Origin: a virus
Direction: 5' to 3' (one strand)
DNA: 64,000 nucleotides
Virus record (IMG/VR): IMGVR_UViG_3300033402_000312
Numbering within the stretch: position 1 is the stretch's first letter; every line of letters begins with the position of its first letter. Both the position numbers and the translations under genes were made by a program. Below are positions 2,594 through 43,913 of this stretch, piece by piece. The notes under the pieces were generated by a model. That model worked only from the letters and a program-made list of their open reading frames with translations, made no database searches and was not told the origin of the DNA.

Positions 2594-3772
2594 CTATACG
2601 TTTGCTATAAAGTAGGCGAGCGTTATTTTCGCTGTTCCGTCGCCCTGAGAAACGGGCGGCGAGCCAGCAGGACCGCTCACAGATACAACATCCACTGTAA
2701 ATCCGGTACCCACTCCAGGCTGCGGACCGTCTGCGGTTGTGGGGTCATCTTCTAAACTATCCACTAATGTGGTCGTGCCATAGTAAGTTCCTGGGTTGGT
2801 GATTTCGTAGGTTAACACCGCCCCGCTGTCGTCCACCGTCAGGACTCGGTACGTTGCGTCCATGCTGCTGTTGTTTTGGCGTATTGTGCCGGTGTCCCCG
2901 ACGGCGTACGCAGTGCCCCCACGAGGTCCGTATATTCCCCCGAAAAACTGGCCCAAAATCGTGGAGACTATCGGGGCTTTTGTGTATGTCGTAGTGCTGT
3001 TGGCATATACGACTATCTGCTGGTTGTCAGCCTCGGTCTCGGGCAACCCCTGCACGCCCGACGGACCGCTGGTGACAGGAGGAAGGGCGCTAAACCCCAG
3101 AATGTCGGCCGTAGATGTTAGGGGACTCGAAAAAGACAAAAGATTTGCTCCGAAGCCCGCGTCGTACGGAAAGGAGCCTGCATAGCCGACGTAAAGGAGC
3201 GCGTTTGCGTACGGCGTCGTGTTGAACTTGTAGGAAAGCACGCTAAGCGCCAAGGGCACTATGAATCTTCCAACGCCGGGGACGGGGATGGGGAATGCCA
3301 CCGAGACTACGCTGAGGGAGTTCAACTGGGCCGCTGACAAATCCAATTCTACTGTGTGGATAAGGCTGGAAAGCGGCATGCCGGAACTCTGCACGTTACC
3401 GTCCCCATCCGTAGTGACTATGTTGCCGCCTTCGGCCGTTTTGATGCTGCCGCTCGAATCGGTTACGGCCACGAGCGAGCCGTTGGTGCTCGTTCCCAAT
3501 ACCGTAATTGAACCCGAAGAGGTGACTATACCTGTCGCAATGCCCGCGCCTGAGACTGAAGCTACTGTTCCGCTAGCGGGACTTGCCCAGCCGAGGAATA
3601 CGTTGTTCCCGTTGATCACGGCGGCGTCGAGAAGCTGCCCCTGGATCGGCGCTATGTTCGGGAGCAGGAACGTCAGGTTGCCCCCGATGCCCTGCGCCTG
3701 GATCGTTGCCTGCCCGGCGACCGACCCCGAGAACGTGAGCGTACTGACTACCGGGTTGCCTGCGTCCGCCAT
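2594..3772 (-). CDS. tail fiber-like virion protein (392 aa)
   Basis: Gly/Ser/Thr/Val/Asn-rich beta-type composition typical of phage fibers (GSITVLGTSTNGSLVAVTDSSGSIKTAEGGNIVTTDGDGNV). Adjacent to a second fiber-like gene. Confidence 0.55.
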   Translation of the reverse strand: MADAGNPVVSTLTFSGSVAGQATIQAQGIGGNLTFLLPNIAPIQGQLLDAAVINGNNVFLGWASPASGTVASVSGAGIATGIVTSSGSITVLGTSTNGSLVAVTDSSGSIKTAEGGNIVTTDGDGNVQSSGMPLSSLIHTVELDLSAAQLNSLSVVSVAFPIPVPGVGRFIVPLALSVLSYKFNTTPYANALLYVGYAGSFPYDAGFGANLLSFSSPLTSTADILGFSALPPVTSGPSGVQGLPETEADNQQIVVYANSTTTYTKAPIVSTILGQFFGGIYGPRGGTAYAVGDTGTIRQNNSSMDATYRVLTVDDSGAVLTYEITNPGTYYGTTTLVDSLEDDPTTADGPQPGVGTGFTVDVVSVSGPAGSPPVSQGDGTAKITLAYFIANV

Positions 3773-3784
3773 ACCGCCCCGGCC

Positions 3785-4318
3785 CTACAGATTCCTGACG
3801 TACACGTACACGAGGTTGCTGCTCGCCTGGAATTGGACTTGCCCGTTCGCCTGCGTGAACACGGATGACGGAAGGACTAGGAACTCAACCGACTGCTGCG
3901 TCGAGTCGAAAACCGGGAGCGGATAGCTGACGACATTCGCTGTGCGGCCCGTGCAGGAGTCGGGTGCCGATGTGATGCTGAGGGTGGACGAGGCGTACAG
4001 CGCCCAGAATGTTGGGCTTGTCCCTGGACTTTGGTTTAGGTTTGGGCTGGGGTTTGCAAGAGCGATGTAAGTGCCCGCAGGGGAGCCTCCATTTACGACT
4101 TGACCCTGTGTGTACGTCACCGTGGTGCTCCACGCCGCAGCCGACGACGCGGGGAGGCAGATGAACGTCACGAGGTCGCGGTTGGTCGCCGTGAAATAGT
4201 TGCCGTTCAGCGGATCGCATGCCACGTACTGTGCGTTGAGCAGGGGCGACGGTTGGGATACAGGCGCTGTCGGGAAGAGATCGATTGCCGGAGTATTTGG
4301 TATCGCTGTCAATGCCAT
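3785..4318 (-). CDS. tail fiber / virion structural protein (177 aa)
   Basis: ATG preceded by AGGGGA. Ser/Thr/Asn/Pro-rich composition. Immediately upstream of the 392-aa fiber-like gene. Confidence 0.45.
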   Translation of the reverse strand: MALTAIPNTPAIDLFPTAPVSQPSPLLNAQYVACDPLNGNYFTATNRDLVTFICLPASSAAAWSTTVTYTQGQVVNGGSPAGTYIALANPSPNLNQSPGTSPTFWALYASSTLSITSAPDSCTGRTANVVSYPLPVFDSTQQSVEFLVLPSSVFTQANGQVQFQASSNLVYVYVRNL

Positions 4319-4399
4319 AGTTTCCCCCTATTAAGAGAGGCGTAGCCGAAAAACGGCTTCGCTAATTGCCGGTTTTTAGGGGGTTTCTAAAGCGTCCTG

Positions 4400-5122
4400 T
4401 TAGTGCCGGTCGTAACGGACTAGCTCAAAGCGGCCATCGTGATGCTCGACAATGGCGGTTAGGGACACCCAATCGCCGCAATTGAAATAGCCTTTGTCTT
4501 CGTGGAGCGCCGCAGTATGGATGTGCCCGCAGATGACGCCGTCCGCATCCGCGCTCTTGGCAAGCTCAAGCAGGGACTCCTCGAAATCCCCTATGTAGGC
4601 GACAGCTTCCTTGACCTGCTTTTTGATGACTGCTGAGAATGAGAGAAACTTCATGCCGAACAGCTTGCGAAGCCAATTTACTGAGGTATTGAAGGCGACG
4701 AGCCAGTCGTAAAGGACTGATCCGACCTTGGCGAGCCATTTGGCGTGCCCCATCACCGGGTCGAAGATGTCGCCGTGGATGACGAGGAGCTTGCGACCAA
4801 GCAGCCCCGTGAAGACGCGCTTGTCCACGATCTCGATGTTGCCGATCTCGAAGCCCTCGAACAGGCGAAGCTCCGGGTCGTGGTTGCCCGGCAGGATCAC
4901 GAACTTGGAGCCTTTGCGGGCTTTGCGGAGAATCTTCTGGACGACCGTGCTCGCCTCAACAGGCCAAGAATGCGAGCGCCTGACCTCCCACAGGCCGAGG
5001 AAATCGCCGACGATGTACCAGGTGTCGGCTTCGTTGTCGCGCAGGAAGTTGAGCAGGGCCGAATAGTTGCATGCCCCGCCGAGATGCAGGTCGCTGATGA
5101 AGATGGTTCGGTAGTGCGCCAT
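4400..5122 (-). CDS. calcineurin-like metallophosphoesterase, LpxH (UDP-2,3-diacylglucosamine pyrophosphatase) family-like
   Basis: N-terminus MAHYRTIFISDLHLGG...WYIVGDFLGLW...ILPGNHDPE...VIHGDIFD...ICGHIHTA reproduces the ordered metal-binding motifs of LpxH-type phosphoesterases (DxH, GD, GNHD, GH, GHxH). Confidence 0.7.
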   Translation of the reverse strand: MAHYRTIFISDLHLGGACNYSALLNFLRDNEADTWYIVGDFLGLWEVRRSHSWPVEASTVVQKILRKARKGSKFVILPGNHDPELRLFEGFEIGNIEIVDKRVFTGLLGRKLLVIHGDIFDPVMGHAKWLAKVGSVLYDWLVAFNTSVNWLRKLFGMKFLSFSAVIKKQVKEAVAYIGDFEESLLELAKSADADGVICGHIHTAALHEDKGYFNCGDWVSLTAIVEHHDGRFELVRYDRH

Positions 5123-5182
5123 TACCTATTAGATGGAAATCTGTGTTACGGGAGTGTTAATTTACCGGAGCTTGCAGTCGAG

Positions 5183-5977
5183 TCATGTCAACTTCTCATA
5201 GTTTTGGATGAACGACCCGATCAGCGCAGGGATCACGGGCGTGCAGGCATTGCCTAGCGCTTTAAGTCGGTATGACCAATCGGGAATCCCATAAACTGCT
5301 CTAACGCCTCGGGCGTAGGCATCAGATTCTGGTTCTTCTGGATCACCGCTCGAACGAGCATTTCCTGCGCCCAGTTCATACTCCCAGTAATGCCAGTCTT
5401 GGCACGCTTGCGCCATCTTCCTTTCGAGTTCTGGTGAAAGCGTCCATCCTCTGGCCACGTCTTCTCCAAGGCATTTAATGCCGTGGGGGTCGTGATGCGC
5501 GAGGATGAAAACGCGTTCCCGTTGGAATGGCGCACCGAAAGCTTCAGCACCCACCACGGACGACCAGCAGGAGTAGCCTGCTCCTTCCAAGTCAGAGACG
5601 ACCCGGTCAGCGCCTTTAGTCTTGAGATTAGGAACGTTCTCAACAAGGACCCAACGAGGCTGTAGTTCCCGGACGACTCTTGCGTACTCGAACCAGAGAC
5701 CGGAGCGGTTGTGGAGTCCTCGCTCTTTGCCCCCGGCTGCAACGCTGAGGTCTTGGCAGGGAAAGCCGCCGCTGATGAGACCGACTGGCTGGAGGTTGTG
5801 CTTGCCGACGTCTCTGACGTCGGAGAATCTTGAGACATTAGGCCACCTAGCCTCTAATACTCGGTTGCAGAAATTGTCAATTTCCACCTGCCAGATGGTC
5901 TCAAAATTAGCCCACGAGAGTCCCAGGTCGATTCCGCCTATTCCAGTGAACAAACTGCCGTGGGTCAGACTCCCCAT
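5183..5977 (-). CDS. dcm: DNA (cytosine-5)-methyltransferase
   Basis: Motif I LFTGIGGIDLG (FxGxGG), motif IV GGFPCQDLSVAG (PCQ), motif VI ENVPNL (ENV), and QRERVF (QxRxR), all in canonical order. Confidence 0.9.
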   Translation of the reverse strand: MGSLTHGSLFTGIGGIDLGLSWANFETIWQVEIDNFCNRVLEARWPNVSRFSDVRDVGKHNLQPVGLISGGFPCQDLSVAAGGKERGLHNRSGLWFEYARVVRELQPRWVLVENVPNLKTKGADRVVSDLEGAGYSCWSSVVGAEAFGAPFQRERVFILAHHDPHGIKCLGEDVARGWTLSPELERKMAQACQDWHYWEYELGAGNARSSGDPEEPESDAYARGVRAVYGIPDWSYRLKALGNACTPVIPALIGSFIQNYEKLT

Positions 5978-5990
5978 GGAGCCTAATACT

Positions 5991-6027
5991 GCAAAAGAAA
6001 GGGGCTGCCCTGTTACAGGACAGCCCC
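5991..6027 (-). terminator. intrinsic terminator after the Mrr_N-like gene (coordinates approximate)
   Basis: On the minus strand, a near-perfect 11-12 bp GC-rich hairpin GGGGCTGTCCTG-taa-CAGGGCAGCCCC is followed by TTTCTTTTGC. Confidence 0.55.
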
Positions 6028-6057
6028 AACTTTCCTCTATGTATTGTCTGGTTCAGC

Positions 6058-6318
6058 TTAGCGGGCGTAGCTGGTCAAGCCCCACGTGCCGTCGTTTTGA
6101 CGGGCAATTACGCCTTGTGTAGCTAGGGCGTATTGATCACGGCGAAGCTGATGCTGCCACGCGAACTGAGACGGACGGGATGCATCGCGGCGTCGGCTGC
6201 GGGTGAGCATCAATTTCCGGGTGCGGGCGAGGTTATAAAGCTCTTCCGTCGTGTAGTGCCCACGGTTGAGGGTGCGAACGATGAACGATTGGAAGTTTGT
6301 ATCTGCTGATCGAGCCAT
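6058..6318 (-). CDS. stand-alone winged-helix protein resembling the N-terminal domain of Mrr-type modification-dependent restriction enzymes (86 aa)
   Basis: HYTTEELYNLARTRKL...FAWQHQLRRDQYALATQGVIARQNDGTWGLT matches the Mrr_N layout (helix, conserved W, G-hydrophobic-x-R, G-x-W-x-L-T wing). ATG preceded by AGGAGA. Confidence 0.45.
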   Translation of the reverse strand: MARSADTNFQSFIVRTLNRGHYTTEELYNLARTRKLMLTRSRRRDASRPSQFAWQHQLRRDQYALATQGVIARQNDGTWGLTSYAR

Positions 6319-6390
6319 GCGATCTCCTATTGCAGCATTTGCTGCTAAGAAATAATACCGCTAATCTCGGGTTTTAAGGCTTTCGGGCCA

Positions 6391-6600
6391 TTAAAAAAAG
6401 GAATCCGGGACAAGTCCCCACACTTTCAAGAGCGCCTCGGGTATGTAACGCGTATTTTTGTGCACGACCGCCCACGCCCGAAGCTCCCTCGACTGGATGT
6501 ACTGGTCGGGAGTCAGCCCAAGCTCATTGGCTTTAAGCTCGAAAGCGCAGACAGCCGATTGGTCTTTTTTCCGGTTGGGGTTTCCGACGCATCTTGGCAT
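6391..6600 (-). CDS. hypothetical protein (70 aa from the internal ATG; 98 aa if the GTG at 6687 is used)
   Basis: ATG at 6600 preceded by AAGGGGGA. Conserved-looking core LRAWAVVHKNTRYIPEALLKVWGL. Confidence 0.4.
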   Translation of the reverse strand: MPRCVGNPNRKKDQSAVCAFELKANELGLTPDQYIQSRELRAWAVVHKNTRYIPEALLKVWGLVPDSFF

Positions 6601-6719
6601 GCGAATTCCCCCTTTGGCTTGATGAGAAGCTCGGTCTTTGCTCCCCCTTGGGAATGGCTCGGCATGCGCACGGGGTATATGTCGCACTTCGAGTACAAGC
6701 TTCTGATGAACGGGCGGTC

Positions 6720-6748
6720 ATTATAGGACAGCATCCAGCCGTTGTCCA
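6720..6748 (-). promoter_or_regulatory. sigma-70-like promoter (TGGACA-N17-TATAAT) reading into the 6391-6600/6687 gene (coordinates approximate)
   Basis: On the minus strand, TGGACA, a 17-nt spacer, and a perfect TATAAT, located in the intergenic gap after the stop of 6772..8139. Confidence 0.45.
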
Positions 6749-6771
6749 TGCCCACGGCATCCTTACCCTAC

Positions 6772-8139
6772 TCATCCTGCCGAAGCAGCACGTTTCTTGT
6801 ATGGCTTCCTTTGCTTGGGAGCATGCTGCTTCTTGAGGAAGAACTCGGCAAGCTGCTTGAGGCGCATGCGGCAACGGGCGAACTCCTGTTCGGTGACGCC
6901 CATGTACTCTGCCGCCTCCCCCATCGATCCGCACGACTCCAGCGCTTCTATCGCAGGGTAGATGCTCGGGTCTTCCCTGCGCACGTATTGCTTGAACTCG
7001 CTTGTGTACAGGCGGTCGTCATGCTGCTTCTGCATGCGCAACGACTGCGTTGCCAGCAGCGGCGAGTTGGCGTGGATGAACTCGTCGCTGCTGGACGTCG
7101 GGTCCGCCTCGTCCAAGGATACGCCGAAAGCAATGTTTCCGGGGCGGCATATCGGATTCTTCTGGCGCTTGCTCTGCATGGTGTTGAACTTGTTTGCAAG
7201 GCAGAAATTGATATAGTTGCGGAAGCGGCATTCGGACGCCCCGTACTGCTGGTACGGATTGAACGTTTCGACCACATCCGCGCATCCCAGCAATCGTCCG
7301 TTCGCGCCGGGCATCCTGTGCTTGGATGCCTGCGGGAGCCATTTCATGTGGATCAGTAAATCCTGCGTCCAATCCTCAACGTCTTCGTCTACCACGAAAC
7401 GGTTGAGGCGCTTCTGCACCCACCTGAGCACGTACTTCGGGAAGCGGTCATAAAACTCGTCAAAGTTCCTTGGAACCACGAAGCCGTCCATGCCCACATA
7501 ATGCCCGTCCGCGTTGACTGTGAACGGGTCGCCCGTGTAGTCGAAATCGATCTCATCTTCGGCTGCCTCGCCTGCCACAGAAATAGGTTCCGGCGCGGTT
7601 AGCAGGGGTGCGGGGGTTTCCGCAACGGGCTGCGGGACGGGTTGCGGGGCAGGTTGGGCAACGATCTTAGGCTCAGAAAACTTCGCCTTTTCCAAGGCTG
7701 CGACTTGGCGCATTTTCTGCTGGCGTTGCGCAAGCTCCATTGCCGCTGGGTCAATCGCAACAGCCCACCCGTTTGCGGCTACCCACCCGGTGATCGTCCC
7801 AATAATCGGGCGTCCCCACGGAGCCTTGCCTTGCAAAGACTTCTTGCCATCCCATGCAATCACAGGAGCGCCGGTGAGGTCGGCACTGTCAGCGACCACG
7901 ACATAGCTCGGAATGACTGCTTTTTTCCATGGCCGGAGGTTTTTGTAAACGGTTTTTTCCGGCTCCACGGACGGCTGCGGTCTGCGGGGCCCCGTAAGGT
8001 TGTAGGCAAAAGAAATGAGCGCGGCATGCTCAGAATAAGACAAGTCCAAGTACACGAACCGCAAAGTGACGTTTTTATCGGGATTTTGAAGCGCGTAAAT
8101 TGGTACCGACTTGCCACTACTGGCCTTCTTTGTTGGCAT
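6772..8139 (-). CDS. sigma-70 family (ECF-like) protein with long N-terminal extension (455 aa)
   Basis: Region-2-like FYDRFPKYVLRWVQKRLNRFVVDEDVEDWTQDLLIHM (AED...Q-type). Region-4-like HTH at the C-terminus: SMGEAAEYMGVTEQEFARCRMRLKQL. ATG at 8139 preceded by GGAGAG. Confidence 0.5.
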   Translation of the reverse strand: MPTKKASSGKSVPIYALQNPDKNVTLRFVYLDLSYSEHAALISFAYNLTGPRRPQPSVEPEKTVYKNLRPWKKAVIPSYVVVADSADLTGAPVIAWDGKKSLQGKAPWGRPIIGTITGWVAANGWAVAIDPAAMELAQRQQKMRQVAALEKAKFSEPKIVAQPAPQPVPQPVAETPAPLLTAPEPISVAGEAAEDEIDFDYTGDPFTVNADGHYVGMDGFVVPRNFDEFYDRFPKYVLRWVQKRLNRFVVDEDVEDWTQDLLIHMKWLPQASKHRMPGANGRLLGCADVVETFNPYQQYGASECRFRNYINFCLANKFNTMQSKRQKNPICRPGNIAFGVSLDEADPTSSSDEFIHANSPLLATQSLRMQKQHDDRLYTSEFKQYVRREDPSIYPAIEALESCGSMGEAAEYMGVTEQEFARCRMRLKQLAEFFLKKQHAPKQRKPYKKRAASAG

Positions 8140-8204
8140 AGCTCTCCGTGTACACACTCACCGCGCCGGGAGTCGGTGCCTACGCGGCTGCATGAAAATG
8201 AATT

Positions 8205-8405
8205 TTACTTCAATCCAAATGTGGGCGGAAAGTTTTCCCCGAGAAGAGCTTCTTCCTCCTCGATGCGCTTTTTCAAGTCTATCATCATGGGACACTTTTC
8301 GCCGAGGCCACAGGTCGGGTCTTGGACGTGGCTGGCATAGATGTCTTTCATGAGTTCGACTGCGCGGGATCTTTGGCGCTCGGATTGGATGATGTTTTTG
8401 GCCAT
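8205..8405 (-). CDS. hypothetical small protein (66 aa)
   Basis: Short minus-strand ORF in the operon orientation. Internal ATG preceded by a GGAG-containing stretch. No motif. Confidence 0.3.
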   Translation of the reverse strand: MAKNIIQSERQRSRAVELMKDIYASHVQDPTCGLGEKCPMMIDLKKRIEEEEALLGENFPPTFGLK

Positions 8406-8515
8406 CACTCCATGCCTCTTGAGCACTTTACCGCAGATGCGTGGGGAATGTCAACGGGCCGCAGGAGACTTCTTTTCAAGGCCTCGGTGTTAAGCACTCG
8501 ATGGTCTTGGAGTCT

Positions 8516-8737
8516 TTAGCTTGTGTTCCTCTTGGTGCTGGCTTTATCCGTCTCGCTCTTTGCGCCCTCGGCGAACGAGGCCTTTTGAGCCAGCTTCAGG
8601 AACTGGTCAAAACGGGAATTGATGGACAAATGTATGTTCTCAATCTGATTCCTCACCATCCAACCGAGGGTGAAGGTCAAAAAGGCAGGGACAGCCGTGA
8701 TGCAAGCAGCAACAATCAACACTTGGTTGTTGGTCAT
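8516..8737 (-). CDS. small membrane protein (73 aa, one predicted TM helix)
   Basis: Hydrophobic stretch VLIVAACITAVPAFLTFTLGWMV followed by a polar, charged tail. Holin-like size class, but the function is not supported by any motif. Confidence 0.4.
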   Translation of the reverse strand: MTNNQVLIVAACITAVPAFLTFTLGWMVRNQIENIHLSINSRFDQFLKLAQKASFAEGAKSETDKASTKRNTS

Positions 8738-8802
8738 AATAAGGAGGGGGGAATTAGTTTTTTGGCGGGTTCACAACCGAGTCGGATTGGAATAATAGGG
8801 AA

Positions 8803-10932
8803 TTACCTTCTCCCTCTCCTATTCCAAGGGCTTACGGGGTTAGTTCCCATGTAAGAAGCTGCATGTTGTTGGGATTTCTTGAGCTTTTCCATGATCTTCA
8901 GGACTTGCATGGGGATGCCGTCCATGCCGAGCAGCGGGGCCGGGGGGCGCATCATCTGCGCCTGCATGAGCAGGCTGAGACCGGAGGGGTCCATCATCTG
9001 CCCCTGCTCCAACAGCCAGCGCTGGGCAAGGAAGGCGCACAGCATGGCAGCGTCCGCCATGTCGTCATGAGCGCCCTTTTCCTGCGGCGCTGCGACGCGA
9101 ATGCGGTACTTCGCCATAACCTCAAGCTCGACGAGCTTCAGTTCCTGGATGAACTTCGGCACGTAAGGGAAGCGGCAGCGCTCGGACTCGATGTAGCCGC
9201 GCAGGGCGTATGCCATCTGCGAGTTGATCGCGGGCGTCAGGTTGACAAGCTCGAAGTTCCTGATCTTCTTCAGTTCAAGTGTCTGTACAAGCTGCTGGCC
9301 TCCATGCTGGTCGGTCGCCCCCTTGAAGCATGGAAGAATCTTGTTCATCTCCTCCATCCAGTCGAGGATGTCTTCCAGCGGAAGAATCTGATAACCCTCG
9401 TATTTGTTTTGCCCGATCCCCACCTTTACGCCCGGCCATTCGCCCTTCTCGCCGACCATCATCCGGTCGATATAGTCGTAGATCAGCTTGATCGTGCCGT
9501 GCGGACCGCCTGGCTCAAGGTGCCCAATGGCGAGCGCGGATGCGTCGTTCGTCATGCCGAGGTCGAAGCCCCAGAAATAGTTCCTGCCGATCTGCATCGG
9601 AGTGAAGCGCTGGATGTTGATGCGTGCGCTTCCCTCGACAGGCAACCCCCTCTCGTCCCACTTGCAGTCCGTGCATTTCTTCACCGATGCCTCAGTCACA
9701 TAGGATTCGGACGACTCTAGGAACTTGCCGCCATATTCGGCCTTGAATGTAAGCGGGTTCTTCTTGTACTCAGATTTGAGGAACTTCGCCAGCAGCTTCG
9801 GGTTCATCTCGGCGCTTGGGCAATTAAGCGTGAAGATGCCGGAAACGATAGGTCCCTCTTCCAACGCCATCTTGTGAAGCTCGTACATCTTGCCGATCTT
9901 CTTGAGCGGGCTGCTGATGCTCAGAATCATGGAGTCCTGAATGCCCTCGTTCTCGTCCTCGAACTCAAGACCCGGCTCGGTTTCCTCGAAACGCACATTG
10001 GAGTCCGTGCCGAAATCCGTGCCCATCGGCTCTTCCGGCAAGGTGCCAGCCGCGACGAGCTTCTCGTGGTGGAAGTCTGCCGTGGACGGCGTAGCCGCCG
10101 CGTACATGTCGTCCGACGTCGATCCTTTCGCGGAGCGGAAGTGTGCAAACTCGTCGAGCGCAAGGAAGATGGATGAAGGCGAACGCACGGCGTTCGTGGT
10201 GCATGGAAGGCAGCTTACTGTGACCGTGGGCGTGGACTCCTGCTTCTCGCGGTCGGCGAGCGTGACGAATGCCAAGTCCTTTGCATTAGTATCCTTCAGG
10301 TACGGGGCAAAAAAGCTTTCAGCCTTGAGCACCTGCTCGCGCAGCTTCTTGAACAGGCGGTGAGCGCCGTTCTCATCCTGCGCAAGAAACGTGAAGTCAA
10401 TGATGGAGCCGGGAAACAAACCGAAGTGCTCCTGCGGAGACCTGATATTTAATAGCAAGTAAAGCTTGTAGCAGGCCACAGCCGCCACTAGCTCCGACTT
10501 GCCTCCTCTCCGCCCGGCGAAAACGCACGCCTCATTGAAGCCCGCCTCGCCGGGGATGCCGCCCATGTTCGGGATGTCGCGCCAGTCGGAAACGTTGCAG
10601 CGCTGCTCGTTAAACGTAATGCGGAGGTACTCCTCCTCGGTCACGTCCGCGTGCAGTTTCTTCTCGCGGAACACGTCGTACATCGGCACCATGCCCCATC
10701 CGGGGATGCGCGACGTCCATTCTGGCTTGTAGTCGAAGGGAACGCCATAGATCGCCTTGACAATAACGCGCTGCACCGGACGCAGCACGATGCCTATGCC
10801 GCCCGGTCCCTCGATAAATTCGATGGCGTTTTGCAGCTTGCTCGGGTCTTCGATGCTCGCGGCAATGGCTGCGCCGAAGACGGAATCCTTGGCGGCCTTG
10901 CCGAAACGCTTGCTTCTGCGGATGTTAGCCAT
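8803..10932 (-). CDS. terL: terminase large subunit (709 aa)
   Basis: Walker A-like FAGRRGGKSELVAAVACYKL, then FLALDEFAHF (Walker B/DE), then a nuclease-like C-terminal half with acidic residues. The size and position are typical for TerL. Confidence 0.85.
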   Translation of the reverse strand: MANIRRSKRFGKAAKDSVFGAAIAASIEDPSKLQNAIEFIEGPGGIGIVLRPVQRVIVKAIYGVPFDYKPEWTSRIPGWGMVPMYDVFREKKLHADVTEEEYLRITFNEQRCNVSDWRDIPNMGGIPGEAGFNEACVFAGRRGGKSELVAAVACYKLYLLLNIRSPQEHFGLFPGSIIDFTFLAQDENGAHRLFKKLREQVLKAESFFAPYLKDTNAKDLAFVTLADREKQESTPTVTVSCLPCTTNAVRSPSSIFLALDEFAHFRSAKGSTSDDMYAAATPSTADFHHEKLVAAGTLPEEPMGTDFGTDSNVRFEETEPGLEFEDENEGIQDSMILSISSPLKKIGKMYELHKMALEEGPIVSGIFTLNCPSAEMNPKLLAKFLKSEYKKNPLTFKAEYGGKFLESSESYVTEASVKKCTDCKWDERGLPVEGSARINIQRFTPMQIGRNYFWGFDLGMTNDASALAIGHLEPGGPHGTIKLIYDYIDRMMVGEKGEWPGVKVGIGQNKYEGYQILPLEDILDWMEEMNKILPCFKGATDQHGGQQLVQTLELKKIRNFELVNLTPAINSQMAYALRGYIESERCRFPYVPKFIQELKLVELEVMAKYRIRVAAPQEKGAHDDMADAAMLCAFLAQRWLLEQGQMMDPSGLSLLMQAQMMRPPAPLLGMDGIPMQVLKIMEKLKKSQQHAASYMGTNPVSPWNRRGRR

Positions 10933-11330
10933 ACCTATTAAAAGGGCTGAAAAGCTGGGGTATTCTGTCTACAAAGAGAGGTATTTGGGGGGAGCCGGTG
11001 CGTAGATTCCCGGCTCTCCCATCGACCCGCCATGCGGTAGAGGTGCCTTATGGCGAAGCCCATACACCATTGCGGTCACTGGATCAGCCCTGCAAACCAG
11101 TCGAGGTTATCGGGATTATGCAACGGCACCTATCACAAAGCTCAGTTATTACGCCGTCTTCAACGGGAACCACCCGTGAGGTGTGTGATTTCCCCTTTGC
11201 CCCTCTGCCACCGCTCCGGCTTTCGCTTTCACGGACAGCAACCTAACACGCCTTTTCGCCTTGCGGCACGGCTAAGTCGGTCAACCGTTTAGTCAGAGTT
11301 TTTCTGACCGCAATTTTTTAGAACGCTGCG

Positions 11331-11702
11331 TTAACGCCCGTTCCCCAGATTCTTTAATACTGAAGCGACATGCAATTGCGCATCGGCAAACTCTTGGTCC
11401 CAGTTCGCCTCGCGCACCACCGCCTGCTTGCGCCCAAAATTGTCGGCTCGGCGCAGCATGCTGCCGGTGCGGGTCTGCGGCGCGATGCCCGGCTCCTCCT
11501 CGTCAAACACGGCTTGGAAAGACATCGGGTCTTCGAGCCAAAGCTCCACGACTGCTTCCTCCTCCTCGGAACTGGCGGCAGACTCAAGCTCGCGGTCGCA
11601 CTCGTCCACTACTTCCTGCCAGTGGCGGAACTCGACGGGATGCCCGTCAGCGATAGCTCCCATCTTGACGAAGCCGGAGCCTGTGATGCGGACGACCCTC
11701 AT
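11331..11702 (-). CDS. acidic hypothetical protein (123 aa)
   Basis: The ATG overlaps the TGA of the upstream gene (ATGA). Glu/Asp-rich. Confidence 0.45.
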   Translation of the reverse strand: MRVVRITGSGFVKMGAIADGHPVEFRHWQEVVDECDRELESAASSEEEEAVVELWLEDPMSFQAVFDEEEPGIAPQTRTGSMLRRADNFGRKQAVVREANWDQEFADAQLHVASVLKNLGNGR

Positions 11703-11989
11703 ACGCGATCCTGAAGCTCCCTGATGACCTCTTCGAGCGTGAACTGCGCCTTGTAAGGCATCTCGGATTGGATTTTATGTGCCTCCGCATTGATCTCCCG
11801 GATGACGGAGACGACGATCTTGTCCACAAGCGGCTTGAACTCAGGGTAGCGCTTCAAGCCCATCAACGGGGGTTCGTGCTCGATTGCACCGATGCCCAGA
11901 CCCCCTGTCGGTATGGATTTCGTGTGGCGTGCGATCTCCTTCTCAGCCACCTTGGCGATGAACGCCGCTCGGATTTTCAGGTCTGCCAT
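11699..11989 (-). CDS. hypothetical protein (96 aa)
   Basis: ATG preceded by AAAGGAAAA. Translationally coupled to the downstream gene. Confidence 0.45.
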   Translation of the reverse strand: MADLKIRAAFIAKVAEKEIARHTKSIPTGGLGIGAIEHEPPLMGLKRYPEFKPLVDKIVVSVIREINAEAHKIQSEMPYKAQFTLEEVIRELQDRV

Positions 11990-12000
11990 GTTGTTTTCCT

Positions 12001-12822
12001 TTATGCGACACCTGCGACTGTTGCTTTTGCCCGCACGATTCCGGTGAGGGGCTGTTTCATAATTCGTTCAGCGATTTTGAACTTTCTGGGCAACGCAATG
12101 ACACAGTCTTTGTAAAGTAGTGCAGTAGCATTACGAGCGCGGTCGCCACAAAGTAAAACATCATGTATGGAACCATGCGGTCCCACTTGCCCATAAATGT
12201 TGTTATCAGCGAGAAAATTCACGAATGTTGTGCATGACGCGAGCGATCCGCAAAGTTCCATGACTGCTGTGTTTTTAGATGTGGCTGGATAGCCGTCCCC
12301 GTCAACCATGCCCCGCCAAAAATGCCTACTGTTAACAACCTCGGCGGAGGGGGCGGCTGTAAAAGACTTGCGTTCAGTTATACCTAGTTCCCTGAGGCGG
12401 CGATACAGCTTATCGGAAAGAAGTTGAACTGTATTACATCCAGCCCTTGTTGGAGAAATTGGATACGAAGACTTCAAGAAATCCAAAAATAATCTAAGGT
12501 GCTTTTTATCCTTCTTCGCCAATTTCAGCCTTATTCTGGCCGCTGCGTTATGTTTGCGGTTTCCTTCAACAGTTCCGTCCGCTAGCAAAAATCCGATCCA
12601 ATAAAGCGCCTCTTCGCCTAGAGGCGCATCAAATGCGGTTTCATTGACGGAATACTTCCTGAAAGCTTCTGAGCGACTTCTGACAGCACCATCACCTTCT
12701 ACCCTGACGATCTTCAGAATTGTGGCGCGGCAAAGACGGTAAGCCTTTTGCAAATCAACGGAGCTTTCTCCAGATTTGTACCGTGTTAAAATTTCCTTGC
12801 GAGTTTTATCCATGATCTTCAT
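12001..12822 (-). CDS. LAGLIDADG-family homing endonuclease (double-motif, ~273 aa)
   Basis: Two LAGLIDADG-type motifs, LYWIGFLLADGTVEG and FWRGMVDGDGYPA, preceded by an N-terminal HTH-like segment. The ATG at 12822 lies 17 nt after the stop of the 1591-aa gene. Confidence 0.8.
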   Translation of the reverse strand: MKIMDKTRKEILTRYKSGESSVDLQKAYRLCRATILKIVRVEGDGAVRSRSEAFRKYSVNETAFDAPLGEEALYWIGFLLADGTVEGNRKHNAAARIRLKLAKKDKKHLRLFLDFLKSSYPISPTRAGCNTVQLLSDKLYRRLRELGITERKSFTAAPSAEVVNSRHFWRGMVDGDGYPATSKNTAVMELCGSLASCTTFVNFLADNNIYGQVGPHGSIHDVLLCGDRARNATALLYKDCVIALPRKFKIAERIMKQPLTGIVRAKATVAGVA

Positions 12823-12838
12823 AAATCTCAGATACCAC

Positions 12839-15800
12839 TTACTCACGAGTGCCACAAACAAAACGGTATTTCATGATGAGGCTGTCAGTATCAATAGTCT
12901 CTGGGCGAACAAAAACCTCATAGACGAACCCACCGTTTGGGTCATCGTTCCAAACGGCTGCTTGCGCCCAACTAGAATTCAGAGCGCTCTTAATGTCCCC
13001 GTCGTTGAGTTTTTTCATCAACCACGCAACACGACCGCCTTTGCCGGTGACTCCTAATGGTTGTGTCTGTTGACCCTGCTCAATAATGTCAAGCTGAATT
13101 TCCCCTACGCCTGGAACTTTATCAAGCAATGGACGTTGTGTAATTTTGAAACTTGCTACGAAAGTTGCGGCTATTTCCCCGCATACCTTTTTCAAAAACT
13201 CGGAGAATTGCTTAACTTCGTCTCCCGCAGCGACTTTCTGAGAGGCGATGGCCATCGCGGCTCCCGGTATTCCCTCATACTGACCATAAAATTCATCAGT
13301 AAACATATACCCTCTAATATCGTTCTCCTTGCGGAGAGGCGCTCCTTCGAGAACCTCGGGCTTGCCGTCGCGCCCGATGCCCATTCCGCCCGCTGGCTTA
13401 GTGGACGAGTAGTCCGCCGCAGCCATCGCGAGAGGCTCGACTTCGCCTACGTCGGCAGGCAACTGGATCATCTCGATCACGTTGGTGTCGAGTGCCTCGT
13501 CAAGCATGCCCTCAAGCTCGTGGCTGTCGTCTCCGACGATCTCCGGGTTGCCTGCGCCGCTCATCGGCTGGTTGGTTGCGTTCGGGTAATCCACGATCTC
13601 ATGCTGGATTTCCGGGTAGAATTCCTTCACCACCTGTCCGGGGAAGAAGAAATTGAAGCCCGCTTCCTTTTCGACCTGCTCTTCTGTTTTTGCCATACCG
13701 TCTCCTGCTGTCTTGCCCGCGTCAATTTGCGCCATCGCATCCAAGAACCGTTTCTCTCCGCGACCGCTCTTCAAGGCGGCAATCGCGTCCCGAGCGTTCT
13801 GACCAAACATTTTCAGATTCTCGCGACCTTGGTTTCCGCGCAAAGGATTTTCGCGGGGCAAGTTAACGCCCGCGCCGCCGATAGGCTTGCCCTTATAATA
13901 GAGCATGTAGCCATCGGCATTTGCTTGGTAGGTTAAATCTTCCGCCGCTTTTTTAACGCCCACATTCACGACTTTGGAGAAATCTTTCTTTGTGCCGCGC
14001 CTGTAGCTTTCCCAGCAATCGGATGTGTCTGGGGCGTCGCACTTGATCTTCTTGAAGAGCGTCCAACTGCCTTTTGGCTCCCGGGCCCCCTCGGAGTCTT
14101 GCGTATCCTCGGTCACAAGCTCTATTTTGATTTTCCGATTCGTCGGATGAAAGAAAAACATGTACAATGAACCGTCCACGTTTTCTTGCTTCCAGCCGTT
14201 CGCCCTCAGCAGTTTCTTCATCTGCGTGATGAGCTTGCTATGCCCCCAGCCCTTCTGAGCGGCTTTCTTCACGCCCGTGCCCCCTGCCGTGTAGGCTTTC
14301 TCGTCCCAGCGCAGGCCGTACTGCGCGAGTATCTGCTCGGACTCTTCCCTGTCCGGGCCGCCCATGACGTTGACCATCGGGTCGGGCATCTTCATCGTCT
14401 GGACGGCGATCTGAAGCTGGTGCCATTCCGGCGTGCCCTTCTGCGGCATGCGCTTCACAGAGGTGACATGGATGGCTGCGTTCTTCAGCGAGGAAGAGAT
14501 GCCGACGCTTTTCATGAAGGCGCTGTCTTGGATGTCGGTCTCCCTGCGTTCGTAGTCCATGTTCGCCTTGGCAAGCTCGACCCAGTTCGGCTCTTCCCAC
14601 GGCTCGTTTCCCTCGAACCCGGATTCGCGCTTAAGCTCTTCGTATTGCTTCCTGAAAGTCTTCTTCAGTTGCTCGGCAAGCTGCTCCGGCGTCAAGCCCT
14701 CCTTGATGGCGCGGCGCACCATGTCCTGCTTGAGTTCGAACGTCTCCCTGCTCTCGTTGTCGAGCCACATGTCAAGCTGCCCGGTCTCCCAGTTCGACCA
14801 GTGCTCCTCGCTAATGCCTTGCGGGTCGTCGGCGGTTTTGCCCGAGCTTGCTGATGTTTTCATCGAGATGCATTCGTTGCACAGCCCACGGCCTTCCTCT
14901 AGCTCCGTGCCGGGCAGAAGCTCCTCGCCGCACTTGTAGCAAAACCGCTCAGGATGCTCCGATTCCCCGGATTGCTGCTGCAATTCCTCAAACTTTTTGC
15001 CGCGAGTACCCGCCCCCGCTTGGTCGTAGAATACGTAGGTGTCGCTTTCCGGCGCGTAATCCATCTGCAAGCCCAAGGCTTCCGCAGTGTCCATCATGAA
15101 CGTCGTAAGCTGCTGCTCGAAGGAATCCATGTAGCCTTGCGGGTTCCTCTTCTTCAAGTCCGCGAAGATGCCGTTGAGCCTGTCCGTGACCGCCTTGATC
15201 ACGTCGGTCTTGTTCTTCTCGCTGACGCGGCTCTCGATGGACAGCGCCCTCTTGCCGAAGGAGGCCTTCTTGGAGGCGCTCACGATCCTCTCGGTCTCCC
15301 AGTCGTCGAAACGCATCGCAGGCTTGCCATCCACTTGCCCGCGCACAGCCCAAGTGAAGTCTTGCCCGTTGTGCTCCGGGTCAATCGTCGGGTACTTCTT
15401 TTGAGCCTCGGCGAGGTTCGGGAAGACCTCGCGCCCCTTGCTGCGGGTCACGACCTCGACGGGCGAGTTCACATAGCTCCTCCATTCGACCCACGCTGCT
15501 GTCTTTGTCCTTACGGCAGTTTTGAGGTGCCAGCGCATCTGCTTGTGCTTGAGCAAGCCTTCCCTGAGGAGGTCCTGGAGCACAGGATAAGCCATGTTGG
15601 TGTACTTGCCGCCGCCGAGCGCTTTTTCGATTTCGTCCGTCGTCTTCGGGCCGTGGCCCAGGATTTCCAGCACAAGGTTGCGCTTCGCAGGATCGGCTGC
15701 CGCTGTCTTCTTCACGGGCGGTTTTTCGGGCGGAATCGGCGTTTCGCTCACGGCAGTATGGGAGTTCCACCCGCACGAGCAGGCGTAGGAGTCCTCGGGC

Positions 15801-17614
15801 TTGCCCTTCGATGTCATTTTCCCGCACCACGGGCACCTCATAGTCCAGTTGCTCGCGAACTTGCTGAACTTAGCGGATGCGCTCTTGATGAAGGCATGCG
15901 CTTCCTTGAAGGAGGAGAACGAAGCCTCGCGCCGGGTGCCGCGAAAGACGAACCCAACGTGGAACGATGGGCCCTCTAAGTCCGTGCCGCCGAAAGCCCC
16001 GGTGCCCATGCCCGATGTGACTTTGCCTTGGTTTTCGCCGCCGATTGGCTCAGCGCCCTGCTTGACTTCGGAGGCATCCCCGATCTCGCGCCATATCCCG
16101 CCGCTTTGATCGACCCAAACGTTTTCTGCTTGGTTGTAGTCGAACTCTTCGCTGTTTTCGCTGGCAGCGGCAAGCTCTCCAATGTCGTGGACTTGGACGC
16201 GCTTGCCTTGGCGTTCAAGGACACGGAGGTTGGCGGTCTTTGTTGACTCAGCGCCCTTTTTCTCCTTCGCGATCTCGGCCTCGACGACGGCTTGGGCGTC
16301 GGAAGTGGTGAGACCTTCCTCTTCCAGTTTCCTGACCCTCTCCGCGTAGTCGGGACTCGGGTCGTTCGGGTACTGTTGACCGCCGGTCCCGATGCCCAGC
16401 TTGTCCCGAATATCGACGAATTTCTGCTGGGGATTGATGGGTTTAAGGCTCGTCAGGAGCTTCACCAATTGATGGTAGTTTTCGTTTTCCAATTGGTCGA
16501 TGACGGCTTGGGAGATGCGCTTGAAGCCAGCAGTCTTCATCGCCGCAAGCATCGCCGCCTGGTAGCGTGCCTCCAGTTGCGGGTCCTCCATGATCTGGCC
16601 GCCGCTTTCGATGCCGAGCCTGTCCCAGACATCGTTCTCCAGCAGCATGAGCCTCTCGGCTTGGGAGACCGCCGTCTTGGAGCCGACGTTGATGATGATC
16701 TGGGTGCCTGGCTTCGCGGAGACCTCGGTTGCGCCAGCCGGGGCCTCGCCGTTGAGCTTGGCTTCCGTCTGCTCCACGGCACGCTCGACTTGCTCCTGCT
16801 TGACCTCGATGGGCTTGTGGACTTCCATTTCCGCCTGCGTCTCGATTGCCTCGCGGATCGCGTTCACGTTCTGGCGCTCCGGGGACTTGATTCCGCCGTC
16901 GGCCACAGGGACGCCGTTTTCCTCGTGCGTGTTCGCATGAAGCTCGTCGTTGGAGGCCCCCGCTTCCGGCCCGTCGATGTGGGCTTCGCCGTACGCGTTC
17001 TCTATCGGCTCCATCATCTTCGAAAGCTCTTGGTCGCTGTGGATCAGTTCGGCCGCCAGCTTGTAGGCTTCCGGGCTGTAGCCGTCGTCGGCGAACTTGA
17101 TCGTCACGCCTGTTTTCGTCGAGGCCGCCTTAAGCTTCGCCTCGTATGGCTGCTCTTTCGCGGGCAGCCCCAACGCTTCCAGGTGCTTGCACTTGCGGTG
17201 GCCGATCCAGCCGGGGCAGTTGCAGCCCCAATAGCGCCACTTCTTGTTCTGCGCGATGGTGTAAAGCCTGCCGGAAGACTCGGACTTGATGTAGAAGCGG
17301 TTCGTCCATTGCTTGTTGTCAGGCAGCAGTTGCCCCTCAAATCGTTGTCCGTTGATAACTATGGCTTGCGGGTTGTACTCGGGGTCGTCCGCAGGCTGCG
17401 GGGCTTTGCCCTCGGGTCGCGGCGCTTTCTTCTCGGATTGCTGGGACGGGACGGCGATGTTGAGGGGCTTCATGCCTGCCTCTTCGCGCATCTCGTTGAG
17501 GGCGTCGATCTCTTCCTGCTCGACCGGGTGCCCTTCGGTGAGCTTCCAAAGCAGCGTCTTCGTGAAGACGTTGACTGCGTTGGTTATGTCCGCGATTTTA
17601 TTCTGCTGGTTCAT
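12839..17614 (-). CDS. giant virion-module protein (1591 aa) with N-terminal SWIM-type zinc finger
   Basis: ATG preceded by AAGGGAG. SWIM CxCxnCxH: WGCNCPGWIGHRKCKHLEAL. Additional zinc ribbon CPWCGKMTSKGKPEDSYACSCG and a KYCYKCGEE...CNEC pair. Acidic overall. Confidence 0.7.
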   Translation of the reverse strand: MNQQNKIADITNAVNVFTKTLLWKLTEGHPVEQEEIDALNEMREEAGMKPLNIAVPSQQSEKKAPRPEGKAPQPADDPEYNPQAIVINGQRFEGQLLPDNKQWTNRFYIKSESSGRLYTIAQNKKWRYWGCNCPGWIGHRKCKHLEALGLPAKEQPYEAKLKAASTKTGVTIKFADDGYSPEAYKLAAELIHSDQELSKMMEPIENAYGEAHIDGPEAGASNDELHANTHEENGVPVADGGIKSPERQNVNAIREAIETQAEMEVHKPIEVKQEQVERAVEQTEAKLNGEAPAGATEVSAKPGTQIIINVGSKTAVSQAERLMLLENDVWDRLGIESGGQIMEDPQLEARYQAAMLAAMKTAGFKRISQAVIDQLENENYHQLVKLLTSLKPINPQQKFVDIRDKLGIGTGGQQYPNDPSPDYAERVRKLEEEGLTTSDAQAVVEAEIAKEKKGAESTKTANLRVLERQGKRVQVHDIGELAAASENSEEFDYNQAENVWVDQSGGIWREIGDASEVKQGAEPIGGENQGKVTSGMGTGAFGGTDLEGPSFHVGFVFRGTRREASFSSFKEAHAFIKSASAKFSKFASNWTMRCPWCGKMTSKGKPEDSYACSCGWNSHTAVSETPIPPEKPPVKKTAAADPAKRNLVLEILGHGPKTTDEIEKALGGGKYTNMAYPVLQDLLREGLLKHKQMRWHLKTAVRTKTAAWVEWRSYVNSPVEVVTRSKGREVFPNLAEAQKKYPTIDPEHNGQDFTWAVRGQVDGKPAMRFDDWETERIVSASKKASFGKRALSIESRVSEKNKTDVIKAVTDRLNGIFADLKKRNPQGYMDSFEQQLTTFMMDTAEALGLQMDYAPESDTYVFYDQAGAGTRGKKFEELQQQSGESEHPERFCYKCGEELLPGTELEEGRGLCNECISMKTSASSGKTADDPQGISEEHWSNWETGQLDMWLDNESRETFELKQDMVRRAIKEGLTPEQLAEQLKKTFRKQYEELKRESGFEGNEPWEEPNWVELAKANMDYERRETDIQDSAFMKSVGISSSLKNAAIHVTSVKRMPQKGTPEWHQLQIAVQTMKMPDPMVNVMGGPDREESEQILAQYGLRWDEKAYTAGGTGVKKAAQKGWGHSKLITQMKKLLRANGWKQENVDGSLYMFFFHPTNRKIKIELVTEDTQDSEGAREPKGSWTLFKKIKCDAPDTSDCWESYRRGTKKDFSKVVNVGVKKAAEDLTYQANADGYMLYYKGKPIGGAGVNLPRENPLRGNQGRENLKMFGQNARDAIAALKSGRGEKRFLDAMAQIDAGKTAGDGMAKTEEQVEKEAGFNFFFPGQVVKEFYPEIQHEIVDYPNATNQPMSGAGNPEIVGDDSHELEGMLDEALDTNVIEMIQLPADVGEVEPLAMAAADYSSTKPAGGMGIGRDGKPEVLEGAPLRKENDIRGYMFTDEFYGQYEGIPGAAMAIASQKVAAGDEVKQFSEFLKKVCGEIAATFVASFKITQRPLLDKVPGVGEIQLDIIEQGQQTQPLGVTGKGGRVAWLMKKLNDGDIKSALNSSWAQAAVWNDDPNGGFVYEVFVRPETIDTDSLIMKYRFVCGTRE

Positions 17615-17628
17615 GCCGCCTGGCTCCC

Positions 17629-28721: not shown

Positions 28722-29171
28722 CTAAACTTCGTGCCCGGCTGGTTCCTTGGCGCTTCCGTCTACCTGCTCCAGAGCCTTCCTTAAAATCCCCGGATCGTCC
28801 TTGAAGCACTCCATGCCCCGGTTACAATTAGTGCAAAGCAGACGTTTCCGGGAACCGAATGCGTGGATGTGGGTGTCGCGATGGTACAAGGTGAGGGAGG
28901 CCCCGCAGATGAGGCACTTCTTGTCCTGCGAACGCCATAGCTCAAGGTAGTCGCCGGGTGACATGCGCCACTTTTGCTCAAGAAGCTGCTCGAAAGCGGA
29001 GACCTTGGCCCAAAACGACCCGGTGTAGGCATTGTGGCAGGTCTTGCAATAGTCCTGCCTGCCGGAGGCGGTGCGGCGGTTCTCGCCGAAGGCGTCGTAG
29101 GGCAAGACTTTGCCGCAGCGGTTGCACCATTTGGTCTTGGCTATCTCGTCAAAAAGCCTCTTACGCCCCAT
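28722..29171 (-). CDS. HNH endonuclease, phage T4 endonuclease VII-like (149 aa)
   Basis: CNRCG...CKTCH zinc site, then CLICGASL...HRDTHIHAFGSRKRLLCTNCNRG matching the EndoVII C-x2-C / H-x-H / LLC-x2-CN pattern (looser than the 58264 copy). Confidence 0.65.
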   Translation of the reverse strand: MGRKRLFDEIAKTKWCNRCGKVLPYDAFGENRRTASGRQDYCKTCHNAYTGSFWAKVSAFEQLLEQKWRMSPGDYLELWRSQDKKCLICGASLTLYHRDTHIHAFGSRKRLLCTNCNRGMECFKDDPGILRKALEQVDGSAKEPAGHEV

Positions 29172-29305
29172 TATTCCACCGGCACTTTTCCATAAATCCC
29201 CTTAATTCCCTAATACCGCCGTTTTCCCCCTAAAACGATTTCAGTAGTCAAAGGATTTCGCTACCTATGCTCTTTGTAGAGGACACTTCCTCCAAGGTTT
29301 CTTAA

Positions 29306-43874: not shown

Positions 43875-43913
43875 GCAGTCTAATACTGCGATTTTTGAAA
43901 TTCAAAAGAAAAA

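Follow-up and report, generated by a model that had tools for sequence, protein, structure and literature searches.

One anti-restriction cluster or three accessory genes? A winged helix, a C5-cytosine methyltransferase and a phosphoesterase encoded side by side in a soil phage

The viral record IMGVR_UViG_3300033402_000312, analysed here as one stretch of 64,000 nucleotides (nt) that we call the window, carries on its minus strand a small winged helix-turn-helix (wHTH) gene followed by genes for a C5-cytosine DNA methyltransferase (MTase) and a metallophosphoesterase, raising the question of whether the three work together, as the initial annotation proposed in describing an anti-restriction or epigenetic cluster. 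The question matters since phages that methylate their DNA dodge classical restriction but become targets of modification-dependent nucleases, and few escapes from these are known. The explanation we favour, if only tentatively, is one of three adjacent, independently transcribed accessory modules, among which a clear anti-restriction role falls to the methylase only. As an enzyme the MTase is genuine if unremarkable, and the interest of the locus lies in the winged helix. The three genes, and the strong terminator between the first two, are found where the initial annotation had placed them, downstream of a small conserved open reading frame (ORF), p69:

6391-6600, minus strand: p69, a conserved ORF of 69 amino acids (aa)
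6058-6318, minus strand: winged-helix ORF, 86 aa
5993-6027, minus strand: intrinsic terminator (hairpin 6027-6001) with a 12-bp G+C-rich stem, a 3-nt loop and a T tract
5183-5977, minus strand: C5-cytosine DNA methyltransferase, 264 aa, identified by Pfam, NCBIfam and PHROG matches and by its motifs
4400-5122, minus strand: calcineurin-like metallophosphoesterase, 240 aa, identified by metal motifs and alignment to LpxH

The methyltransferase and its transcription unit

From its family matches and motifs, the 264-aa protein is predicted to be a complete, intact C5-cytosine MTase. It matches PF00145 at 1e-40 (140.6 bits, cut-off 22), TIGR00675 with 121.9 bits against a cut-off of 100.65 and phrog_363 along the full length (4e-63), and contains motifs I (FTGIGG), IV (GGFPCQD), VI (ENV), VIII (QRERVF) and IX/X (YGIPDW...GNACTPVIP). 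The catalytic Cys of motif IV, whose mutation in relatives the initial annotation had named as the mark of an inactive enzyme, is kept in 9 of 9 MTase sequences from the clade of related phages, two of them having PCH or PCT instead of PCQ, and the MTase is apparently active. The target-recognition region between motifs VIII and IX comprises ~50 residues and is conserved within the clade. It aligns with no solved MTase (only motifs I-VIII align), so that the target site is not deducible from solved structures, and palindrome statistics reveal purged sites, not the methylated one. The protein resembles the orphan short C5-MTases of phrog_363 found in Mycobacterium phages SG4 and Che9d, with a full-length match at ~37% identity, a common size of ~250-265 aa, a minimal target-recognition region and no partner nuclease. 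It differs from them in belonging to another phage lineage with hosts of another phylum, and in having a leaderless-type start and an optional winged-helix cassette upstream.

Throughout the clade a C5 methylase comes after p69, in every member with sufficient sequence, and the enzyme is of the window type in every sufficiently covered locus but L043 (74% identity to the window protein in L041). In L043 a HhaI-like 328-aa C5-MTase (16106-17172) occupies the same position after p69; its N-terminal motif I lies in another frame, and the gene is therefore apparently frameshifted. Public gene calls on contigs identical to the window (e.g. L001, 10481-11065) show a 194-aa Ser/Thr-rich ORF in place of the MTase, leaving the enzyme unnoticed and unannotated in those assemblies. 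This ORF (5254-5838, minus strand, in another frame) has no family match and overlaps the conserved full-length MTase, and is not a real gene. The MTase is called correctly in L004, L006 and L013.

The composition of the window provides a context for such an enzyme. Relative to maximal-order Markov expectations over the whole 64 kb (1-64000), 13 hexamer palindromes, each expected 7-35 times, are at 0 copies, and three more are nearly so (observed against expected):

GCCGGC 0 against 35; GGCGCC 0 against 35; CGATCG 0 against 33; CCGCGG 0 against 32
GTCGAC 0 against 30.5; CTCGAG 0 against 27; GCGCGC 0 against 23; CTGCAG 0 against 16
GAGCTC 0 against 14; CAGCTG 0 against 11; AGATCT 0 against 11; ACCGGT 0 against 9; GGATCC 0 against 7
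CGCGCG 1 against 20; TCCGGA 1 against 19.5; CCCGGG 3 against 40

By comparison, of 1778 non-palindromic hexamers expected 15 times or more, depletion below 0.1 is seen in just 2. Among shorter sites, partial depletion is seen for GGCC (0.37), GGWCC (0.31) and CCWGG (0.43), and none for CCGG, GCGC or GATC. Many type II systems have clearly left their mark on this phage lineage, and the purge of palindromes suggests that restriction-site avoidance is its main anti-restriction strategy. That picture accommodates a methylase acting on a short site which the phage has no means of avoiding: the MTase would most likely methylate the phage genome at a short site that mutation is unable to remove, complementing the purge of hexamer palindromes, and would be expressed from a GTATTA-type promoter of its own.

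This putative promoter, and its counterpart at the wHTH gene, are among several copies of a motif that recurs in the window as (G)C(A/G)GTATTA, in several cases directly upstream of start codons:

6353-6361, minus strand: GCGGTATTA, promoter-like motif and candidate -10 element upstream of the wHTH gene, where the variant CGGTATTA of the motif is noted
6324-6327, minus strand: Shine-Dalgarno sequence GGAG, 5 nt before the wHTH ATG, read in aataGGAGatcgcATG
5984-5992, minus strand: GCAGTATTA, promoter-like motif directly after the terminator, its end 6 nt from the MTase ATG, without a Shine-Dalgarno sequence
43881-43889, 29211-29219 and 11355-11363, minus strand, and 45696-45704, plus strand: further copies of the motif

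With at most one mismatch, the GCAGTATTA motif family has 9 copies in the window where 3.7 would be expected, and 7 of the 9 lie on the coding strand. The arrangement CAGTATTA-N6-ATG at the MTase, without a Shine-Dalgarno sequence, is kept in the window, L006, L016-L018, L024 and L041, and an identical arrangement, CAGTATTAGACTGCATG at 43881-43889, precedes a 327-aa gene (42891-43874), again with 6 nt to the ATG and no Shine-Dalgarno sequence. L004, L013, L019 and L020 have a leader with GGAG between the motif and the MTase start. The same motif is also found upstream of the wHTH gene in L006. We infer that the GTATTA motif is a phage promoter -10 element, that the MTase mRNA would be leaderless or near-leaderless and probably weakly translated, and that the wHTH gene is likely to be well expressed.

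The terminator after the wHTH gene has a folding energy of -27.1 kcal/mol (z = -4.3), and a hairpin is kept at this position in 11 relatives with differing stems, as a tandem double in L004, L019, L022 and L025. Together with the promoter-like motif that each gene has of its own, it indicates that the wHTH, MTase and phosphoesterase genes each form a transcription unit of their own. In some relatives unrelated ORFs intervene, between wHTH and MTase in L020, L024 and L025, and between MTase and phosphoesterase in L019, L020 and L022. The wHTH gene itself, found in most but not all clade relatives, has the make-up of an optional 'moron' cassette of promoter, gene and terminator, the promoter being predicted: as in phage morons, there are a promoter-like motif of its own, a strong ribosome-binding site and a strong terminator, and the cassette is cleanly missing from between the same flanking genes in the closest relative. 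Classic morons are known from temperate lambdoid phages, where the prophage often expresses them.

Nor are the MTase and the winged helix paired as a controller (C) protein system, since the small protein has a winged-helix fold with no HTH_3/Xre match, and upstream of the MTase there is no C-box-like operator, the only conserved element being GTATTA, which is common to unrelated genes. A 5-bp inverted repeat in the wHTH leader, GCAGC-N4-GCTGC, was considered as a wHTH operator and discarded, as L004 and L006 do not share it; around the wHTH and MTase promoters we saw no operator-like inverted repeat that is conserved.

The winged-helix family and its possible roles

The 86-aa protein appears, from database searches, to belong to an undescribed winged-helix family for which Pfam, PHROGs, NCBIfam and PADLOC hold no model. 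It adopts a wHTH fold of ~85 residues, its sequence ending 7 residues past the wing, and is strongly basic (pI 11.5, net charge +9, 15 Arg/Lys against 6 Asp/Glu); we consider it highly probable that it binds DNA. Searches with the single sequence and with profiles gave no match in PHROGs, NCBIfam, PADLOC or PDB sequences, and no HNH or other nuclease domain was found in it. In Pfam the protein has just a weak match to DUF6338 (E 0.044), a family that 8 of 22 family members match weakly at positions 104-143 of 205 (best E 0.003), corresponding to residues 36-79 of the window protein, a likeness that may be real or may stem from the Arg-rich loop. A tblastn search of 50,697 phage genomes gave no match, and neither did an IMG/VR pattern scan derived from the family profile, though L042 and L044, both from IMG/VR, carry a divergent form (P0050) without that pattern. 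The protein has 44 close homologues (63-100% identity, 80-103 aa), all metagenomic, and the family profile finds only 15 matches among 1.84 billion representative proteins, among them stand-alone proteins of 77-87 aa and two fusions to HNH_2. A contig of 894,233 bp also encodes a protein identical to the 86-aa one, and could be a very large phage, a chromosome with a prophage or an artefact of assembly.

The family falls into three groups: the phage subfamily, a stand-alone bacterial subfamily of about 74-87 aa from Acidobacteriota metagenome-assembled genomes (MAGs) and one Deltaproteobacteria MAG, and two fusions of ~229 aa in which the winged helix is joined to an HNH_2 domain. The loop between helices H2 and H3 is basic in the phage proteins (RSRRRDASRP) and takes the form D-C-x(4,5)-C-x-H-R in the bacterial subfamily, where its Cys-x-Cys-x-His residues could be a metal site. 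The recognition helix is common to all three: in W54-Q-H-Q-L-R-R-D-Q62, six of nine residues (W54, Q55, H56, L58, R59 and Q62) are invariant or nearly so among phage, bacterial and HNH-fused members that share only 33-40% overall identity. From this conservation comes the chief argument for a common kind of DNA feature as the target of all of them, and our best guess is that the phage, chromosomal and HNH-fused domains would bind the same one.

Comparison with Pfam Mrr_N (PF14338, gathering score 29.5 bits) suggests where the family may have its kin. Two proteins found with the family profile in the 1.84-billion-protein library, P0053 (E 5e-6) and P0056 (E 6e-4), approach Mrr_N at 6e-5 (23.5 bits) and 3e-6 (27.6 bits), respectively, both below the gathering score. 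Five of 22 family members come close to Mrr_N in this sub-threshold manner, and it is the only winged-helix Pfam family approached by several. For profile-profile comparison, E. coli-Mrr-type sequences, each carrying the PF14338 annotation, were assembled into an independent Mrr_N alignment. The whole family aligns with it end to end over 84 columns (62%, E 7.4e-5) and the bacterial subfamily more strongly (86%, E 4.9e-6), and the phage subfamily in turn aligns with the bacterial subfamily at 99.6% (E 1.8e-24); reversed-sequence controls gave E 0.7-0.8. The Mrr_N alignment is in register through H3 and the wing (Q51/Q52, W54/Y55, L65/L66, G69/G70, G77/G78, W79/W80). We conclude that Mrr_N is probably the nearest described relative of the 86-aa family, by a link that is remote and transitive via intermediates, and that the protein would not count as a member of PF14338 as now defined. 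The description of the protein in the initial annotation as a stand-alone Mrr_N-like wHTH thus holds as to the winged helix and its nearest family, which is not an unrelated helix-turn-helix, and does not hold as to the Pfam threshold. The N-terminal winged-helix domain of EcoKMrr (PF14338) is of the same fold class, is also ~85 aa long and aligns end to end by profile; the 86-aa protein differs in standing alone, without the catalytic PD-(D/E)xK (PD-QxK) domain of Mrr, and in its family-specific basic H2-H3 insert. Modification sensing by Mrr itself has not been demonstrated in vitro (PMC12707154).

The fused relatives carry HNH_2 and not Mrr_cat, and point to type IV restriction by another route. 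In P0049 (229 aa) and P0058 (228 aa) the family winged helix is N-terminal and HNH_2 C-terminal (E 1e-11 and 9e-9). The HNH domain of P0049 matches that of VcaM4I (PDB 6YEX, E 1.7e-4), an EVE-HNH restriction enzyme dependent on 5-methylcytosine (5mC) or 5-hydroxymethylcytosine (5hmC), and that of P0058 weakly matches a PADLOC type IV model; P0049 is encoded directly after an AbiEi/AbiEii pair. Both proteins have the layout and size of the winged helix-HNH proteins of 224-283 aa that are, by experiment, modification-dependent endonucleases (PMC11037411), and it has been argued that a winged helix-fused nuclease without a partner MTase must target modified DNA, as it would otherwise be self-toxic (PMC11037411). 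The characterised enzymes of this kind sense N6-methyladenine (6mA), whereas the window MTase makes 5mC.

What, then, might the phage gain from the winged helix on its own? In outline, the cassette would encode a very basic DNA-binding winged helix, distantly related to Mrr_N, which, made in abundance, would occupy the shared feature on (methylated) phage DNA and so compete with host enzymes of the winged helix-nuclease type. That the 86-aa domain reads modified DNA seems to us somewhat doubtful, and that it serves as a shield or competitor against modification-dependent nucleases unlikely. A full pairing of 'writer plus reader-as-shield', in which a nuclease's winged helix, standing alone and abundantly made, covers 5mC-containing phage DNA or poisons the enzyme oligomer, we would call distinctly unlikely. 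If it were true, the phage would keep a protective C5-methylase without the cost of modification-dependent restriction, and a competitor fashioned out of the DNA-binding module of the nucleases themselves would amount to a novel, simple principle of anti-restriction, as well as a handle on DNA recognition by Mrr-type winged helices. The proposed niche is that of small phage proteins which spare modified DNA from type IV enzymes, reportedly including T4 Arn, acting on McrBC, and T4 IPI*, acting on GmrSD. Arn is an acidic DNA mimic and IPI* an injected, enzyme-binding internal protein, and neither takes the form of a basic winged helix with kinship to the enzyme's own DNA-binding domain. Our literature searches turned up no 'reader-domain competitor' of type IV enzymes. 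Whatever becomes of the shield, an undescribed winged-helix family linked to type-IV-like nucleases is useful in itself.

Several observations weigh against a shield. The protein itself carries no sequence feature that points directly to recognition of modified DNA. The window protein has no match to Pfam Mrr_N at E <= 1, and the phage subfamily alone reaches Mrr_N at only 1.9% (E 0.026). Fold searches with the protein return only generic winged helices (PadR, forkhead, H1). In L041 (IMGVR_UViG_3300043788_000023; 14797-15060), the closest relative by terminase (89%), the p69 stop is followed after 24 nt by the CAGTATTA-N6-ATG of the MTase, with neither wHTH gene nor terminator, and L043 is likewise without the wHTH gene yet has an MTase; the MTase therefore does not depend on the wHTH. 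Where the two are neighbours within the phage clade, their adjacency may merely reflect conserved synteny. Most family members stand alone, far outnumbering the fused ones, and in the bacterial loci that we looked at (L010, L011, L027-L036 and L038-L040) the stand-alone homologues lie among housekeeping genes or beside toxin-antitoxin genes and never adjoin an MTase. Such neighbourhoods suggest that the family may be primarily a small regulator, occasionally recruited by nucleases. The neighbours include a HicB-like gene in L030 and a HigB-like gene in L011, and the homologue in L010 lies near a D5-type primase and McrBC.

The strongest competing explanation is that the 86-aa protein is a plain transcription factor, perhaps one that represses or activates in concert with the sigma-like factor from two genes upstream, or an abundant nucleoid or histone-like protein, its adjacency to the MTase having no functional meaning. 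Small phage wHTH proteins mostly have regulatory roles, and transcription regulators and linker histones are the best fold matches here. The gene sits in a block of sigma-like gene, p69 and wHTH, in a transcription unit insulated by the terminator from the MTase, which in L041 and L043 persists without it, and the bacterial members are orphan small genes with no MTase near. A regulator is nevertheless doubtful in our judgement: retention of six of nine recognition-helix residues across 33-40% identity is unusual for operator-specific regulators, the promoters have no conserved operator-like repeat and share GTATTA with unrelated genes, and the closest family so far described is no regulator family but a restriction enzyme's DNA-binding domain. 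The initial annotation had offered decoy or regulator as alternatives for the winged helix, and on the sequence evidence either a decoy, or shield, or a regulatory role is possible.

The phosphoesterase

The 240-aa protein has the full set of metal motifs (SDLHLG, VGDF, GNHD, IHGD and CGHIHT, giving D11/H13, D40, N80, the H116 region and GHxH), aligns end to end with LpxH models and has LpxH structures as its best PDB sequence matches (E 1e-6). Residues ~122-185 align with the LpxH helical insertion in both full-length hidden Markov model and PDB alignments; the metal motifs are common to LpxH and LpxH2, and the inserted segment would correspond to the LpxH lid, though the lid residues are poorly conserved. 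The likeness does not extend to the LpxH equivalogs NF003743 and TIGR01854, which the protein matches at 42.4 bits (cut-off 134) and 38.1 bits (cut-off 190). Moreover, the phosphate of lipid X is bound in PaLpxH by Arg80, a residue that never varies in LpxH (PMC5016852), and where LpxH has GNRD the window protein has GNHD, with His81 in place of the Arg, as do the phosphoesterases at the same position in all five relatives compared. On this Arg/His comparison we set aside a true LpxH. The substitution resembles that described for PaLpxH2, and LpxH2-type paralogues are thought to have a substrate that differs from UDP-2,3-diacylglucosamine (PMC5016852). We therefore describe the protein, as far as its residues allow, as LpxH-like in layout, or LpxH2-like, and not as LpxH, keeping from the assignment to the LpxH family in the initial annotation the overall layout and metal motifs but not the enzyme identity. 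The annotation UDP-2,3-diacylglucosamine hydrolase is given to homologues in Pelagibacter phage Mosig (41% identity) and Synechococcus phage S-SRM01 (29%); with the invariant Arg missing here, phage 'LpxH' annotations warrant caution.

Among the relatives, L041 carries a phosphoesterase of the window type (86% identity), L006 has none at this position, and L004, L013, L019, L020 and L022 have a second GNHD lineage at the same position, with ~25% identity to the window protein and far closer internally (71% between L004 and L042). In this second lineage the phosphoesterase gene overlaps a GT2 glycosyltransferase gene, likely as a translationally coupled pair:

L004: phosphoesterase 4556-5320, GT2 5211-5951
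L019: phosphoesterase 7984-8748, GT2 8642-9376
L020: phosphoesterase 8498-9211, GT2 9171-9902
L022: phosphoesterase 3955-4719, GT2 4619-5350
L042: phosphoesterase and GT2 within 16369-17761

The window has neither the second lineage nor a GT2 gene. The two lineages, the absences and the GT2 overlap mark the position as an accessory-gene hot spot, and the overlap points to sugar- or envelope-related chemistry rather than DNA modification.

These data bear on the proposal of a single anti-restriction or epigenetic module, in which the phosphoesterase would act on a nucleotide-derived substrate linked with the modification of DNA or with defence signals. The gene order wHTH, MTase, phosphoesterase does recur in L004, L013/L042, L019, L020 and L022, with wHTH identity down to 33%, and a phosphoesterase of LpxH-like layout is held at this position in two different lineages. 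But the three genes have promoter-like motifs of their own with a terminator between the first two, several relatives have unrelated ORFs inserted between them, and partial sets exist, namely MTase and phosphoesterase without wHTH (L041) and wHTH and MTase without phosphoesterase (L006). The overlap with GT2 in relatives and the lack of any PADLOC match for the phosphoesterase argue in the same direction, and with nothing tying the phosphoesterase to DNA modification we regard a single module as very unlikely; the cluster of the initial annotation does not survive as such, and the phosphoesterase should not be counted in an epigenetic one. Equally improbable is that the protein is a true auxiliary LpxH boosting or rewiring host lipid A synthesis during infection, since the end-to-end model alignment, the PDB matches and the Mosig and S-SRM01 annotations that would favour it are set against scores of 42 and 38 bits where 134 and 190 are needed, and a His at the invariant Arg that recalls paralogues argued to differ in substrate (PMC5016852). 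The three-module explanation accounts best for these observations: the wHTH, MTase and phosphoesterase genes would be accessory genes in an insertion-prone stretch between conserved sigma-like and p69 genes on one side and tail-fibre-like genes on the other, the phosphoesterase being, in all likelihood, functionally unrelated to the other two.

Genomic setting

Every gene in this portion of the window is on the minus strand, in the order, upstream to downstream, from terminase to tail-fibre-like genes; those flanking the three accessory genes and p69 are:

8803-10932, minus strand: large terminase
between the terminase and the 461-aa gene, minus strand: two small ORFs
6772-8157, minus strand: 461-aa sigma-like protein with 35% identity to gp3 of Tunturiibacter phage Tunturi_5, which is annotated as an RNA polymerase sigma factor
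3785-4318 and 2594-3772, minus strand: two tail-fibre-like genes

The match of the 461-aa protein to Tunturi_5 gp3 spans residues 210-459, and the two genes have the same position after the terminase; the protein has no Pfam, PHROG or NCBIfam match. p69 always comes after this sigma-like gene. A megablast search of the region gave no nucleotide-level match among GenBank phages, and an Rfam scan of 4200-6900 found nothing. The window terminase shares 41.7% identity with its counterpart in Tunturi_5, an Acidobacteriota phage of 308 kb, and contigs carrying clade relatives measure 170-332 kb, which indicates that the window is a piece of a jumbo-type soil phage; its hosts are probably Acidobacteriota. 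Extreme restriction-site avoidance and a conserved methylase are thus found together in a little-studied lineage of soil jumbo phages.

Elsewhere in the window, genes of homing-endonuclease type are dispersed among very large ORFs (1591-2072 aa) without family matches:

12001-12861, minus strand: LAGLIDADG_3-type gene (E 8e-6)
26503-27306, minus strand: GIY-YIG/SegE-like gene (E 2e-6)
28722-29171, minus strand: endonuclease VII-type gene (E 7.5e-10)

In L043 (IMGVR_UViG_3300044801_000168, 8408-12862) the terminase gene itself is in three matching pieces with ~1 kb between each, a split that may be due to inteins, introns or homing elements.

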